From the IMG/VR virus record IMGVR_UViG_3300006217_000050: DNA of 58,653 nt. The stretch is one strand, 5' to 3'. A program made the position numbers and the translations under genes. Each line of letters opens with the position of its first letter. Positions within the stretch are counted from its first letter, which is position 1. Below the pieces are notes generated by a model, which did no database searches, had not been told where the DNA came from, and saw only the letters and a list, made by a program, of their open reading frames with translations. Below are positions 5,951 to 37,164 of the stretch, in pieces. The stretch is from a virus.

Positions 5951-6020
5951 GCACCTGGTCAATCAGAACATTTGTTTATGATTGGGTGTAATTTTTGTAC
6001 TCATTTTTAAGGAGGCTATC

Positions 6021-7049
6021 ATGAAGATTGAAAAGCGAGGATCCGGATCCTACCGGGTCAGGAAGATGTACAAGGGGCAGATGTACACGGTCAATTTTGA
6101 CCACAAGCCCACACAGAAAGAAGCTATGTTGGCTATGGCGGATGAGCTACAGAAGATTCAGACTAAGCATGAGAGCATGGATTTCAAAGCGGCGGCTGAA
6201 GAATATATTGAGGCTAAGAAAAATGTATTGTCTCCCACAACAATAAAGGGTTATAAAAGTGCCATGAAAACCATATCTAAAAAATTCCAGGGCCTAAACA
6301 TACACGACATTACGGCCTTAGATATACAATCCGAGATCAATATTTTAGCAATAGGACACAGCCCGAAGACTGTACGGAACTACCACGGCTTTATTTCGGC
6401 CGTCCTGGGCACATTTTGTCCGAACCTTAAGATTAGTACCACCCTGCCACAAAAACTCAAAAACGAGCCGTATATACCCTCTGATGAAGAAGTGAAGAAA
6501 ATACTAAAATATTCTAAGGGAACCGAGTATGAGATTCCAATAATTCTTGCCTGCTATGGTCTACGTAGATCGGAAATATGCGCATTGACACTCGACGATA
6601 TAGAAGATGATATAGTAACCATTGATAAAGCCAAAGTATTAGCAGACACAGAAACCTGGGTAAACAAAACAACAAAGACAACTTCAAGTACACGGCAAAT
6701 TATTATACCAATGGAAATCGCAGACATGATAAGAAAGAAAGGCTACATATACAAAGGCCATCCTAATTCAATAAACTCTTTCCTGGTAAAAACCGAAGAT
6801 AAACTTGGAATACCACACTTTCCGTTGCATAAACTTCGCCATTATTTTGCATCTAAAATGAGTGCTCTAAATGTGCCGGAAGCAGATATTATGAAGATGG
6901 GTGGATGGGAAACGGATCATGTTATGAAATCAGTTTACCGGCATTCCATGATAAACCAAGAAAAAGACGCTAAGAGGCAAGCAGCTGAAAAGTTAAAAAA
7001 TGCCCTTTTCACCCAGGACAACTCCGGACAAATTCTGGACAAAAAGTGA
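6021..7049 (+). CDS. int: Tyrosine-type site-specific integrase
   Basis: ATG 6021 preceded by AAGGAGG. C-terminal HKLRHYFAS ... GGWETDHVMKSVYRH matches the HxLRH and catalytic Tyr motifs. Confidence 0.9.
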   Translation: MKIEKRGSGSYRVRKMYKGQMYTVNFDHKPTQKEAMLAMADELQKIQTKHESMDFKAAAEEYIEAKKNVLSPTTIKGYKSAMKTISKKFQGLNIHDITALDIQSEINILAIGHSPKTVRNYHGFISAVLGTFCPNLKISTTLPQKLKNEPYIPSDEEVKKILKYSKGTEYEIPIILACYGLRRSEICALTLDDIEDDIVTIDKAKVLADTETWVNKTTKTTSSTRQIIIPMEIADMIRKKGYIYKGHPNSINSFLVKTEDKLGIPHFPLHKLRHYFASKMSALNVPEADIMKMGGWETDHVMKSVYRHSMINQEKDAKRQAAEKLKNALFTQDNSGQILDKK

Positions 7050-7154: not shown

Positions 7155-7160
7155 GAAAAA

Positions 7161-7185
7161 AGCGGGTGATGGGAATCGAACCCAC
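7161..7185 (-). other. attP core: 3' fragment (T-arm plus acceptor strand) of a tRNA gene, tRNA-Gly-like
   Basis: Minus strand reads GTGGGTTCGATTCCCATCACCCGCT. No matching 5' half is nearby. Sits just after int. Confidence 0.6.
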
Positions 7186-7228
7186 AAAACAAATTCTCAA
7201 AAACATTGTAAATACAGGGCTTCAAAAA

Positions 7229-28227: not shown

Positions 28228-28261
28228 ATGGTATCATGGTTTCGGACAACATTTGTACCAA
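28228..28261 (-). promoter_or_regulatory. Promoter-like element P7 (TTGGTACAA-N19-TACCAT, TG at the extended -10 position)
   Basis: Minus strand, about 100 nt upstream of the 28129 start. Confidence 0.55.
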
Positions 28262-28294: not shown

Positions 28295-28321
28295 AAAAAA
28301 GGCACAGCCTTAAGCCATGCC
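28295..28321 (-). terminator. Rho-independent terminator inside the tail gene block
   Basis: Minus strand reads GGCATGGC-ttaag-GCTGTGCC followed by TTTTTT. Confidence 0.6.
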
Positions 28322-28331
28322 CCCGCAGTCA

Positions 28332-28468
28332 ACCGGAATTGAACCGATGTCTCGTCTATTGACGTGTTCTGCCCGCCTAAACTATTTTCTGCTGACAAAA
28401 AGTGCCCGGATTTGAACCGGGGTTCCTGCGCTGATAACGCTGCTTCTTCCTCGTGAGCTACTTCTTTT
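28332..28468 (-). pseudogene. Two tRNA-like relics (good T-arms, poor acceptor/anticodon pairing)
   Basis: Minus-strand T-arms are ATCGGTTCAATTCCGGT (28332..28348) and CCCGGTTCAAATCCGGG (28405..28421). I could not fold canonical cloverleaves. Confidence 0.35.
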
Positions 28469-28856
28469 TGTTTAAGTGATTATACCACAATTTCTCAATC
28501 CTCTCAACCATTTTCTTTTCTTCGGTAGTAAGATTTGATGCTCCTTTAGGACCGTCATTTTCAAAGTGTATATAACCATGATGAGTATGCGGCTTCATCT
28601 TTTTGTGTGGGTGATCTAAATCAACAGACTTTACTCGTTTATTGTTAGAATCAAAATACATTACTGATAACAAGTCTTTTCCACCAACTGTAACATATAC
28701 CCTTCCGGGAGTCATTGTTTCCATGAGTGTTTCTGATGTGCGATCAGTTTTGGTAACAAATTTTATATTTCCGTTTTGCAGAATTGTATTATATTCACTT
28801 CCGTACTTCTTCCCCTTGTTGGATATACCCGAACTGGCCCCTCTTCCTCCCATCAC
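28458..28856 (-). CDS. hypothetical protein, possibly a MuF-C-terminal-like domain
   Basis: 132 aa. Begins MMGGRGASSG, with a His-rich HPHKKMKPHTHHGY. AT-rich. Confidence 0.5.
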   Translation of the reverse strand: MMGGRGASSGISNKGKKYGSEYNTILQNGNIKFVTKTDRTSETLMETMTPGRVYVTVGGKDLLSVMYFDSNNKRVKSVDLDHPHKKMKPHTHHGYIHFENDGPKGASNLTTEEKKMVERIEKLWYNHLNKKK

Positions 28857-34919: not shown

Positions 34920-35585
34920 TTAATCTCCTTTCTTAACTTCCCTTATCGGGGTGAATCCGAAATTGAAAGCGGGCTTGTCATCGCCCCTGGCAGGTTTTCC
35001 GGTAGTGGGAGCTGTAAACTGTCCTTTTGGCGCGCTCTCGGCAGCTTTCTGTTTGGCTTCTTCCTCAGCAGCCTTATCTGCAGCGGCTTTCTTCTCGTCC
35101 TCTGTCTGATAGAAGTGGTCTTTTTCGTTCTCCTTTTCCAGATAGTCTGACAGCCCCATAAACGCACCGTCCTTCCACTTCAGGCCGTCCTCGCCCATGA
35201 TATCAGCCATGAGAGATTTCCTGGTGCGGTCGGAAGAGATTCCCAGTTTCTCGAACTCTGCATTAAGATAATCACGCTGGTCACGCTGGAGAATCTGCTT
35301 GCTGGCGGTCTCCTGCGCTTCTTTCGCCGCCTGCTTATACTTCTCGATCTCCGCCGCCTGCTTCTCCGGATCAATATCCTTGAACTTCTCCAGGGTCTCA
35401 TTCGCCGTGTCCAGCTGCCCTTTGTAAGTATCCCGGTCAGATTCCGCCGCTTCCAGCTTCTTGGCCTGCTTGTCATAGTCAGCAACCGTGCGGTAGTTTT
35501 CCGTCACAGCCTTATTGACCGCCGCTTTCTGCTCGTCAGTAACTTCAACTCCTGCTTCTTTCAAAATCTGTTCAATGTTCTTCAT
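34920..35585 (-). CDS. Scaffolding protein
   Basis: 221 aa, charged coiled coil (KQAAEIEKYKQAAKEAQE...). Confidence 0.7.
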   Translation of the reverse strand: MKNIEQILKEAGVEVTDEQKAAVNKAVTENYRTVADYDKQAKKLEAAESDRDTYKGQLDTANETLEKFKDIDPEKQAAEIEKYKQAAKEAQETASKQILQRDQRDYLNAEFEKLGISSDRTRKSLMADIMGEDGLKWKDGAFMGLSDYLEKENEKDHFYQTEDEKKAAADKAAEEEAKQKAAESAPKGQFTAPTTGKPARGDDKPAFNFGFTPIREVKKGD

Positions 35586-35664
35586 GTGTCGTTATCCTCC
35601 TAACATGGTTTTTAACAGCGTGTCCGCTGTATGGATTTAGGCAGATGAACCACTGCCGGGGTAA

Positions 35665-35754
35665 TCGGGAAAGTTGGAATCGAACCAACAATGTTTACCG
35701 CGTGGGAACGGATTTACAGTCCGCCGCAACACCACCAATCGTTGCCGTTTCCCG
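35665..35754 (-). tRNA. tRNA-Tyr (anticodon GTA), long variable arm, no encoded CCA
   Basis: Hand fold. Acceptor CGGGAAA/TTTCCCG (7 bp). D-stem GCAAC/GTTGC. Anticodon stem CGGA/TCCG with loop CTGTAAA. T-arm GTTGG-TTCGATT-CCAAC. Confidence 0.75.
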
Positions 35755-35929
35755 GGAGTGCGCCCACCCACAAGGGCAGGCGCTTAGGAAAAAAAGGATT
35801 AGGGGTTTATCGAAAATTAGATGTAAGCATAGTAAAAGGCACCTCCACATAGCAGAGATGCCTTGCAAATCTGCCTGTAGTTTTTTCAGGTTAGCGACTG
35901 AATCCATTTATCAGCCGGTTATTTATTCT

Positions 35930-35963
35930 ATTGTACCGCAGTTTGGTGGGGAAGTTGTACCAA
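35930..35963 (-). promoter_or_regulatory. Promoter-like element P8 (TTGGTACAA-N19-TACAAT)
   Basis: Minus strand, upstream of tRNA-Tyr and the scaffold/capsid genes. Confidence 0.55.
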
Positions 35964-35974
35964 ATTAAAGGCTA

Positions 35975-36050
35975 ATCTGCATACCGGAATCGAACCGATA
36001 AAAGTACGGAATCACTTTGGATATTGCTGACCGTTTTCTCCCAGTGCAGA
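35975..36050 (-). ncRNA. tRNA-like element (T-arm plus 6-bp acceptor helix; body does not fold as a cloverleaf)
   Basis: T-arm ATCGG-TTCGATT-CCGGT. Acceptor TCTGCA/TGCAGA. Confidence 0.35.
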
Positions 36051-36184
36051 ACCCATTTCCTATTGAAATGATTAGTCAATTCTGATTTTCAAGCCAAACA
36101 GTTTCCAAAACTCCGGTTTCTCTTTCTCTGATATGCTCTCCATATCTGCCTGAACAAGAAAACCTTAAAAAAGAAATAGGCTCA

Positions 36185-36280
36185 TGGATAGACAGGGAAT
36201 CGAACCCTGCACTGTCAGACGGTGCCAGTTTATCTGACTTTTTTTTGCACAACCGCCGCGTATACATTTCGCCACTATCC
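36185..36280 (-). ncRNA. 96-nt tRNA-like element (T-arm plus acceptor helix; non-canonical body with an A8 run)
   Basis: T-arm CAGGG-TTCGATT-CCCTG. Acceptor GGATAG/CTATCC. Internal 6-bp helix GTCAGA/TCTGAC. Confidence 0.35.
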
Positions 36281-36385
36281 ACTTTTGAAGCAATAACCAC
36301 TCGCTCCAATGATGCCTCCCACCGGTGCCTTCCGTTCTCGACGGACTGCGGCGCCCAGTTCTCCTCTATAGCATCTTCCCAGGCA

Positions 36386-36461
36386 TGGAAAGTATAGGAA
36401 TCGAACCTATCTCGCCGGTGCTAGCCTCCCAGCAGTTTCACGCCAGATAACACAACTTTCC
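36386..36461 (-). ncRNA. 76-nt tRNA-like element (perfect 7-bp acceptor and T-arm; anticodon region non-canonical)
   Basis: Acceptor GGAAAGT/ACTTTCC. T-arm ATAGG-TTCGATT-CCTAT. GG at the D-loop position. The best anticodon helix leaves a 6-, 8- or 10-nt loop containing CTA. Confidence 0.4.
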
Positions 36462-36650
36462 ACTGTCCATTTTCTGTCTGCAAGGACCGTGCAGTGCGGA
36501 CTTACATAGTTTAACGTGTTCTTAAAGCCGATATTCGTTGCGAGAAACGCCACGTTTGGCACTTTTGTCCTGGCCGCAGATCGTTAATTAAATGTTTGCT
36601 TTGTGATTCCGAGTCTTCATGTCGGCATCCTCCTTTTGCTTGATAGATAC

Positions 36651-36684
36651 ATGATACCATGATTCCAGAATTAATTTGTACCAA
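36651..36684 (-). promoter_or_regulatory. Promoter-like element P9 (TTGGTACAA-N19-TATCAT)
   Basis: Minus strand, at the head of the ORF-poor RNA locus. Confidence 0.55.
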
Positions 36685-36723
36685 GTTATACGCAAAAGAG
36701 CGGCATCACTGCCGCCCCTTTCC

Positions 36724-37164
36724 TTATGAAATCTGCTCCATGCTCTTTTTATATTTTTGCACAACGTCCCTCTCTGCTTTAAAATCAGCATCTCTGTTGA
36801 TATCAAACAACAAATCGCAGATTTCCGACATCAGCCGTTCAAGGGCCTCCGTCACTTTCTGTCGGTGAACCTCAGAACCGTCCCTGGCATACTCTTTCTT
36901 ACACCAGAGATATTTGTCATACAGTTCATTGATGTTCCGGTCAAACCGTGCGTCTGCTCTGCGTTCCATGGTTCTCGCCTTGCCCGGCATCATCTCTTCT
37001 TTCACTTCATGGTATGCGCCCTCTGTGAATCCCATGTACTCTACATATTTTAGGTCTTTGTACATGTCCACAAACTTCATGGCATTGTCTATGTTTGTGG
37101 GAGAGAACCCCTTTTCTGCTATCTCATGGAGTTCTTTCTCGATCCGTTCCATCAGCTTATGCAT
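36724..37164 (-). CDS. hypothetical helical protein
   Basis: 146-aa ORF. Confidence 0.5.
   Translation of the reverse strand: MHKLMERIEKELHEIAEKGFSPTNIDNAMKFVDMYKDLKYVEYMGFTEGAYHEVKEEMMPGKARTMERRADARFDRNINELYDKYLWCKKEYARDGSEVHRQKVTEALERLMSEICDLLFDINRDADFKAERDVVQKYKKSMEQIS

Follow-up and report, generated by a model that had tools for sequence, protein, structure and literature searches.

Phage transfer RNA (tRNA) islands, such as the tRNA-rich region of T5, and tRNA-like processing elements are already known. Among the tRNA genes of phage T4 lie those for RNAs C and D (species 1 and 2), stable small RNAs to which no function has been assigned; they are co-transcribed with the tRNAs and matured by the tRNA-processing machinery. 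Mitochondrial tRNA punctuation and the tRNA-like parts of the MHV68 TMERs serve as processing elements, as does mascRNA, which lies at the 3' end of MALAT1/MEN-beta. Engineered tRNA scaffolds and polycistronic tRNA-guide RNA (gRNA) arrays carry an insert in place of the anticodon loop for processing and stability. For RNase P, RNase Z and the CCA-adding enzyme, the acceptor and T-arm half of a tRNA is sufficient when it is combined with a uridine at position -1, a discriminator base and no encoded CCA. In this study we analysed a 1.1-kb RNA locus of IMG/VR record IMGVR_UViG_3300006217_000050, a prophage stretch of 58,653 nucleotides (nt) that is referred to as the window. The locus contains a tRNA-Tyr(GUA) and three tRNA-like elements, named E1, E2 and E3. 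Our best explanation, to which comparison of the sequences gives about an even chance, is that E1 to E3 are non-decoding mimics of the tRNA top half that would be matured by RNase P and RNase Z. The elements probably make small tRNA look-alikes, and neither a giant structured RNA nor suppressor tRNAs. Relatives of the locus were collected through the scaffold protein (41 IMG/VR loci and 21 genome loci, about 60 in total) and are referred to by L numbers; their named hosts are Lachnospiraceae, namely Eubacterium sp. 14-2, Lachnospiraceae bacterium JLR.KK009 and metagenome-assembled genomes of Acetatifactor, Blautia and Hungatella. The Eubacterium sp. 14-2 locus is L101 (NZ_KE159567), which contains the E2 allele and E3, and L106 belongs to strain JLR.KK009 (CP143549).

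Comparison of this locus with phage tRNA islands revealed the same clustering of tRNA-shaped genes on the gene strand with a promoter of their own, the same presence of exchangeable tRNAs in a slot and a tRNA-Tyr lineage shared with Aeromonas T4-like phages. Unlike the known islands, three of the four members found here are non-decoding and score below the tRNA covariance thresholds. E1 to E3 share with mascRNA the retention of the acceptor stem and T arm, a reduced or aberrant anticodon domain and a presumed use as substrates of RNase P, RNase Z and the CCA-adding enzyme, which would define RNA ends and serve no purpose in translation; the 3' half of E2 also aligns weakly with mascRNA. They differ from mascRNA-type elements in occurring in a phage or bacterial setting and outside the Rfam family, no flanking messenger RNA or microRNA that needs release is evident, and their processing is a prediction. 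The likeness to T4 RNAs C and D lies in the position of small RNAs, predicted here to be processed and stable, among phage tRNA genes. Sequence relation is absent, and the T4 RNAs are single conserved genes, whereas the elements described here belong to shuffling cassette families in temperate Firmicutes phages. E2 and its alleles of 112-140 nt resemble natural versions of the engineered tRNA scaffolds; the latter are man-made, and no shared insert motif or antisense target was found here. The families RAGATH-21 (RF03097) and GP20-b (RF03003) have no match in the window and occupy the same neighbourhood, upstream of the GP20-type scaffold gene and beside the tRNA slot, in relatives: RAGATH-21 at 2798-2882 of L001 (78.2 bits), 119 nt upstream of tRNA-Tyr, and GP20-b at 3788-3848 of L032 (53.8 bits), upstream of the scaffold gene. 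RAGATH-21, too, is an RNA of several stems, with a long terminal closing helix and a T-arm-like hairpin with a 7-nt loop (GGa-UGCAAUU-uCC) abutting the 3' strand. E1 to E3 are set apart from both families by a true T-loop consensus and an architecture of tRNA length. Promoter-bearing arrays of shuffling non-decoding mimics in temperate gut phages are absent from Rfam and from the searched full-text literature, where such cassettes are not described.

Four exact copies of the T-arm motif GGTTCGATTCC are present on the minus strand (at 35676, 35986, 36196 and 36397). When one mismatch was allowed, seven sites were found in the whole window against 0.87 expected, and none of 100 shuffled sequences reached seven. 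All four elements, tRNA-Tyr included, have a 7-bp acceptor position set stacked on a 5-bp T stem, a T loop of the form UUCRANY and the pair G53-C61, with pair 7:66 mismatched in E2 and E3. The acceptor helices of E1, E2 and E3 comprise 7, 6 and 6 contiguous Watson-Crick pairs in elements of 76, 96 and 76 nt, in agreement with an earlier note on this DNA that described three elements with a T arm and an acceptor helix of 6-7 bp. E1 pairs GGAAAGU with ACUUUCC throughout and has A73; E2 pairs GGAUAG(U) with (U)CUAUCC, leaving a U.U opposition, and has A73; E3 pairs UCUGCA(C) with (A)UGCAGA, leaving a C.A opposition, and has U73. An acceptor match of 6/7 within a search span of 110 nt is expected by chance according to our own estimate, so that the case for E2 and E3 is built on the contiguity of the helix, the tRNA-like length and the recurrence in relatives. 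The features of an RNase P and RNase Z substrate are present: a discriminator base and a coaxial helix that spans 12 positions, of which 11 are paired in E2 and in E3. Each element is preceded by U(-1) and does not encode CCA, as is the case for the canonical tRNAs that fill the tRNA slot of relatives. The opposite half is different: the anticodon arm is replaced in all three by a stem with a loop of 10-30 nt, and the D arm is a 3-bp stem with GG in its loop in E1, a 3-bp stem whose loop has no GG in E2 and only the linker UGGGAGAAA in E3. The GG found in E1 and E3 could stand in for the D loop. Since the processing half is kept while the anticodon half is replaced, expanded or variable, E1 to E3 are read as top-half mimics. 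All tRNA-like matches in the window and in 41 related loci are located on the gene strand.

E1 (36386-36461, minus strand) has a 7-bp acceptor, a weak D arm with GG, a variable region of 3 nt and a consensus T arm. Its central 5-bp stem, GCUGG/CCGGC, closes a 10-nt loop, GAGGCUAGCA, which holds the CUA (CTA in the DNA) that had been noticed in a small loop of one element. Besides the window, E1 is carried by L003/L024/L049/L058, L005/L046/L057, L054 and L107, and it is 74-76/76 identical across at least five combinations of flanks, with three different sequences upstream and three downstream. Similarity begins 2-3 nt or less from G1 and stops 2 nt past A73. In the same pairs of loci E1 is identical at 75 of 76 positions and the adjoining spacer at 83 of 105; this E1-E2 spacer (36281-36385, minus strand), which has no open reading frame (ORF), shows 81-83 identities in 105 (79%) with L005, L007 and L106. 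By this measure the conservation of E1 far exceeds that of its flank, and the element moves as a module that stays intact; simple decay would not predict this. Only two substitutions were found in E1 in all, both U/C opposite G and at different pairs of the stem GCYGG/CYGGC. Because both are compatible with pairing, the central stem is kept and the 10-nt loop is left invariant. The first 9 nt and the last 24 nt of E1 are the same as those of a canonical phage tRNA-Ser(GCU) carried by other IMG/VR contigs, and E1 is therefore derived from a tRNA. These 24 nt at the 3' end, together with 8 of the 9 nt at the 5' end, also occur in a tRNA-length sequence that has CAU at the anticodon-loop position.

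E2 (36185-36280, minus strand) has the acceptor GGAUAG/CUAUCC, a 3-bp D-like hairpin and a consensus T arm. A stem GGCGG/CCGUC, or alternatively GUCAGA/UCUGAC, encloses an interior of about 30 nt with the run of eight A residues that had been reported for one element. Beyond the window E2 was found only in four metagenome contigs of the European Nucleotide Archive (ENA), which have A7 in place of A8 and are otherwise identical to the window. In L002, L092 and L106 the flanks of E2 enclose an element of 112-115 nt whose acceptor strands are those of E2 (GGAUAG/CUAUCC-A); it has a canonical D arm, and its interior is unrelated to that of E2. L007 and L012 contain E2-type elements of their own, 140 and 97 nt long, in which the interior differs again. 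E2 is one allele of a slot with exchangeable interiors between fixed acceptor strands. A scan of IMG/VR with the E2 interior found no independent homologue, and a scan based on the flanks found only copies of the same phage; a gapped pattern search of metagenomes gave no match and is unreliable, since near-identical copies exist there. A 12-nt direct repeat, GTTGTGCAAAAA, occurs on the minus strand in the E2 interior (36241-36252), where the poly-A run (A8 in the window, A7 in the four metagenome copies) follows it, and at the 3' end of the upstream gene (36754-36765). This repeat may have been left behind when the interior arose. Elements with a GGATAGT...CTATCC acceptor and a long interior instead of a normal anticodon arm were also observed in unrelated gut-phage contigs, as a 116-nt family with a canonical D arm (L064, L067, L068 and eight more loci) and a 100-nt family (L061, L069, L072, L079, L083 and L094, contigs of 96-100 kb), and the phenomenon therefore extends past this phage group.

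E3 (35975-36050, minus strand) lacks a D stem and has the 9-nt linker named above, a consensus T arm and U73. Its 4-bp stem ACGG/CCGU closes a variable loop of 21 nt. Six sequence variants were found in several flank contexts. Among them are one compensatory double change in the 4-bp stem (A-U to G-C) and one change of U-A to U.G in the T stem, and 7 of the 13 variable columns fall within the loop, which is 21-22 nt long. The E2-E3 spacer, or flank B (36051-36184, minus strand), is 95-97% identical to L002, L092 and L106.

Analysis of the relatives places a hotspot of swappable tRNA and tRNA-like cassettes upstream of the scaffold gene. In these loci the 1.1 kb forms a mosaic of separate blocks that occur in independently shuffled combinations, and the module boundaries coincide with the ends of the acceptor stems. 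Behind P9, the promoter-like motif at the head of the locus, and its leader, different loci carry different tRNA-shaped cassettes: the leader segment flank A is common to the window, L010, L012 and L002 and is followed in them by four different tRNA-like cassettes. Directly before the scaffold gene there is a docking site in which a GC-rich hairpin and a 3' flank bracket whichever tRNA is present; according to ARAGORN the tRNAs in this slot are Tyr, Ile(UAU), Ser(UGA), Ser(GCU), Thr(CGU), Thr(UGU), Ala, Arg, Pro and Gln. A total of 168 T-arm motifs were counted in the upstream regions of the relatives. ARAGORN-called tRNAs account for 43 of these 168, and the others represent more than 15 non-canonical families with acceptor and T arm, or bare T-arm stubs. 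Solitary T-arm hairpins without an acceptor partner are located at 2303-2320 and 3813-3830 of L002 and at about 2920 of L106, an example being GGACGGTTCGATTCCGTC, 8 nt past E3; these hairpins are probably recombination scars. In a further tRNA-like family, of 51-69 nt, the acceptor stem is accompanied by a single small hairpin and by the T arm GGCGGUUCGAUUCCGCA. It is found at about 3505-3555 of L003, at about 3563-3613 of L002, in L134 and in around 25 other loci, its acceptor pairs vary among A-U, G-C, C-G and U.G across loci, and it has no Rfam match; the window is deleted exactly where close relatives carry it.

The covariance models of Rfam 15 were applied at gathering thresholds to the whole window and permissively (E <= 10) to positions 35400-36900. 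No match at gathering thresholds was found in the window, and GOLLD, ROOL, HEARO, transfer-messenger RNA (tmRNA) and T-box models had no match at either level in 35400-36900. The permissive scan gave 23.7 bits for E1 and 28.9 bits for tRNA-Tyr, both with the tRNA-Sec model, 19.3 bits for the 3' half of E2 with mascRNA (RF01684), whose gathering score is 42.5, and nothing for E3. No element of the window reached the 29 bits of the tRNA model RF00005. These sub-threshold scores and the forced calls of ARAGORN described below bear out the earlier observation that none of the three bodies folds into canonical D and anticodon arms.

The earlier note had favoured tRNA-like punctuation of one large phage RNA of the GOLLD or ROOL kind with embedded tRNA-like domains, a reading that we now consider extremely improbable. 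A long ORF-poor stretch beside a prophage tRNA is indeed the classic context of these RNAs (PMC5737381), and the leader before tRNA-Tyr folds significantly better than shuffled sequences. However, no large-RNA family matched even at E <= 10, the segments recombine independently, with spacers that are 79% to 97% identical or replaced, and the internal promoter P8 splits the region, so that one contiguous conserved RNA does not agree with the shuffled blocks of the relatives. The weaker half of that proposal, tRNA-like substrates of RNase P and RNase Z within a non-coding transcript, survives and is the reading that we prefer. Unusual decoders, among which an amber suppressor (E1), expanded-loop or frameshift tRNAs and tRNAs with short introns (E2) were considered, are likewise very unlikely. 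Both CUA and GCU lie within the E1 loop, and relaxed ARAGORN does name E1 as Ser(GCU), E3 as 'tRNA-Leu(CAA)' and, in intron mode, E2 as Pro(UGG) with a 23-nt intron. These calls need mismatches at 2 of 5 anticodon-stem pairs and the absence of U33 (E1 as Ser) or C at position 37 (E2 as Pro), and at the default setting E1 is forced to fit a 'tRNA-Ala(GGC)' of 90 nt, whose acceptor stem is shifted. The anticodons are also mutually inconsistent: two near-identical alleles of the E2 slot are assigned Cys(GCA) and Tyr(AUA), which sets aside an intron-bearing tRNA. None of the three elements has a 5-bp anticodon stem with a 7-nt loop and U33, since the substitution-supported stem of E1 leaves 10 nt, the E2 interior is about 30 nt long and E3, which has no D stem, has 21 nt; the CUA of a would-be amber suppressor occurs only inside the E1 loop and is not preceded by U33. 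In the standard code 83% of the window lies within ORFs of 100 or more amino acids, and reading TAG as sense does not lengthen the longest one, so that recoding is not needed. Neither ARAGORN nor Rfam detected a tmRNA in the locus, and where a tmRNA would have G3.U70, E1 and E2 carry A-U and E3 carries U-A. An antisense role of the big loops was also tried and set aside, as no complementary stretch elsewhere in the window is longer than 9-11 nt, a length judged to be chance level, and the 12-nt match of E2 is a direct repeat and not a complement. No loop motif common to the 17 non-canonical families was found, the top 5-mer, GTGCA, being present in 6 families against a shuffle mean of 5.6.

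Decay was the other explanation offered in the earlier note. In its present form, recombination at conserved tRNA ends replaces the tRNA genes of the slot before the scaffold gene, and E1 to E3 are non-functional pseudo-tRNAs or chimeras that have not yet been deleted; we regard this, the main rival reading, as possible, if rather unlikely. The region is a mosaic with bare T-arm stubs beside E3 in L002, L092, L106 and elsewhere, the E2 interior is unrelated to that of its allele and shares its 12-nt repeat with a nearby gene end, all three elements lie under the Rfam thresholds, and the window has lost cargo that relatives keep (Lar genes and a 51-nt element). Several results weigh against the view of E1 to E3 as top-half mimics in the same way. 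E3 is no more conserved than its flank (72/77 versus 128/135) and its covariation is not significant, as 76 of 500 shuffles reach it with the few sequences at hand; covariation in E1 is thin, with two wobble changes; E2 has no independent homologue in the scans made and no GG in its D-like loop; the folding-energy z-scores of the single elements, from -0.6 to -1.7, are unremarkable; the bare stubs show that recombination debris gathers here; and E1 could owe its high identity to a recent horizontal spread in a narrow, mainly mouse-gut phage group and not to purifying selection over a long time. Decay, on the other hand, should strike acceptor and T arms equally with the rest, yet the T-loop consensus is perfect and the acceptor helix contiguous in all three, E1 has one difference in 76 nt against 22 non-identical columns in 105 of the adjacent spacer and is intact in its several flank combinations, and the array has its own conserved promoter and leader. 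The part of the decay proposal that stands is the origin of the elements, which is clearly from tRNAs, and the part that does not is simple decay of E1. A role of the elements in trans as anti-defence decoys is quite doubtful. The retained part is what Cas12a3 engages, namely the tail, the acceptor stem and the T arm, and this nuclease still cuts the tail of tRNA substrates stripped of loops (PMC12851939). Phage tRNAs, tRNA-Tyr included, are established counter-defence cargo (PMC11555353, PMC10264068), and tRNA-Tyr as phage cargo defeats retron-Eco7 (PMC11555353); Lar restriction-alleviation genes occur in the same island of relatives, and cassette-like turnover is typical of arms-race loci. 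This support is a matter of context, with no cognate defence system identified here and no such decoy described in the searched literature, and a stoichiometric decoy would require very high expression.

On the reading of E1 to E3 as top-half mimics, the locus would be a small non-coding RNA operon in the accessory island of a Lachnospiraceae prophage. Transcription would begin at P9, RNase P would cleave at G1 or U1, each after U(-1), and RNase Z would cleave past the discriminator, after which CCA would be added. Three stable RNA products would result, about 76, 96 and 76 nt long, and the spacers would be released. In the neighbouring slot, which P8 or an internal promoter and the GC hairpin would serve, tRNA-Tyr(GUA) would be co-transcribed with the scaffold and capsid genes. 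The mimics may act in trans, or in cis by defining RNA ends or by keeping the upstream transcript uncoupled from the late operon. A more specific proposal, which we put forward tentatively and consider unlikely as it stands, is a dedicated promoter-driven array of exchangeable non-decoding mimics that act as natural CCA-tailed tRNA scaffolds, with the anticodon-side loop free to vary or to display sequences.

The locus lies between an accessory gene (36724-37164) and the scaffold gene (34920-35585; PF06810), all on the minus strand. In the direction of this strand the order is terminator, P9, AGGAGG with a mini-ORF, a 126-nt leader, E1, a 105-nt spacer, E2, a 134-nt spacer, E3, P8, a 176-nt leader, tRNA-Tyr(GUA) and 79 nt up to the scaffold start codon. 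The positions given in the earlier note were all correct to the nucleotide. The terminator of the upstream accessory gene is the hairpin GGCGGCAGUGAUGCCGC followed by a U-run (36692-36717, minus strand) and is invariant in five aligned loci. P9 (36651-36684, minus strand) reads TTGGTACAA-N19-TATCAT with a TG upstream of the -10 element, and P8 (35930-35963, minus strand), which begins 11 nt past E3, reads TTGGTACAA-N19-TACAAT. Both of these presumed dedicated promoters proved to be copies of a recurrent motif, TTGGTACAA-N19-TAnnAT, of which eight intergenic copies with identical spacing are present at operon starts (49591, 41248, 36684, 35963, 28261, 27479 and 5846 on the minus strand and 7337 on the plus strand). 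P9 is kept in relatives. A scan with the sigma-70 consensus did not call P9, and the spacing of the motif is unlike that of a standard -35/-10 pair, which suggests that a dedicated sigma factor or activator may read it. Behind P8, relatives carry cargo ORFs, including Lar restriction-alleviation genes, that are absent in the window. Lar genes (PF14354) at 2854-3087 of L002 and 2934-3230 of L010 and a cysteine-rich KTR zinc-ribbon gene at 3069-3242 of L002 are located between P8 and the tRNA slot, and the window has lost both kinds.

AGGAGG (36634-36629) and, after a spacer of 8 nt, the 10-codon ORF MKTRNHKANI (36620-36588) were confirmed on the minus strand (36588-36634). The ORF is kept in L010 and in L011, where the final Ile is changed to Phe, it is absent at the aligned position in L012 and L002 has a different ORF of 58 amino acids in its place. 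A conserved attenuator peptide was rejected since the ORF is missing or replaced in several relatives, and the ORF is no conserved part of the system. Flank A (36462-36587, minus strand) is a conserved 5' leader with the 3' end ...CCUUGCAGACAGAAAAUGGACAGU, which supplies U(-1) to the first cassette. The view that the 1.1 kb contains no credible ORF was upheld, as the sole recurrent small ORF, 23 codons in the E2-E3 spacer (MESISEKEKPEFWKLFGLKIRID), is not coding-like: all of its substitutions are non-synonymous, and its frame continues through E3 in relatives. Given that no credible protein gene is present in the P9 unit, the RNAs themselves are its plausible product.

The leader before tRNA-Tyr, which had been described as structured, is 176 nt long and folds at -53.9 kcal/mol (z = -3.87 against shuffles) into three hairpins. 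One is terminator-like, GGCAUCUC...GGAGGUGCC followed by UUUU (35832-35864, minus strand), and at its position relatives have a hairpin and T-run followed by a promoter of the TTGACA type. Another is the GC-rich hairpin GCGCCUGCCC-UUGU-GGGUGGGCGC (35760-35783, minus strand), 5 nt upstream of the tRNA slot and directly before the tRNA. This hairpin is near-invariant in about 20 related loci (for example at 3680-3705 of L002), with the form GCG(C/U)CUGCCC(C)-UUGU-GGG(U/C)GGGCGC, and lies 3-8 nt upstream of whichever tRNA fills the pre-scaffold slot. Since it has no U-tract it is not a classical terminator, and it may act as a docking or processing element. The tRNA-Tyr(GUA) called by ARAGORN (35665-35754, minus strand, 90 nt) is class II-like with a weak variable arm, has C1-G72 and A73 and does not encode CCA, and it shows a 5-bp anticodon stem, a 7-nt loop, U33 and a purine at position 37. 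Annotated tRNA-Tyr genes of Aeromonas T4-like phages match it with 87% identity, and tRNA-Tyr alone had relatives among GenBank phages. Comparison across five homologues revealed replacements on both sides of pairs in the D, anticodon, T and acceptor stems. The gene belongs to a genuine tRNA lineage despite the low Rfam score; the earlier call of a canonical tRNA-Tyr thus holds as to ARAGORN and the homologues, and fails as to the Rfam tRNA threshold. The 3' flank of the slot (35586-35664, minus strand), which runs into the ribosome-binding site of the scaffold gene, is 76-100% identical in about 45 loci regardless of the preceding tRNA.

Two other regions of the window have tRNA-like sequences. 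At 28315-28469 (minus strand) ARAGORN called a 'tRNA-Asp(AUC)' whose stems contain mismatches and which extends over the stop codon belonging to the ORF at 28458-28856, and this is followed by the T arm GGTTCAATTCC (28335-28345), two terminator hairpins and the TTGGTACAA promoter at 28261. At 7155-7190 (minus strand), beside the integrase gene (5982-7049, plus strand), an exact GGTTCGATTCC is followed by CCCATCACCCGC and no tRNA 5' half is present; this site looks like an att-type 3' fragment of a host tRNA gene at the prophage end.

Phage tRNAs have recently been recast as counter-defence cargo, and the debate has so far been about decoding tRNAs. In this locus and in dozens of related Lachnospiraceae prophages, non-decoding tRNA-shaped modules are kept intact and shuffled as units, with their own promoter. 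As these elements escape standard tRNA and Rfam annotation, similar ones have probably been missed in gut viromes. If the elements are debris, the locus is still a clean example of tRNA-cassette turnover at a fixed docking site before the capsid-assembly genes. If they are processed and stable, they would be the counterpart, in bacterial viruses, of the tRNA-like processing elements known from eukaryotes, and might form a new class of RNA decoys.

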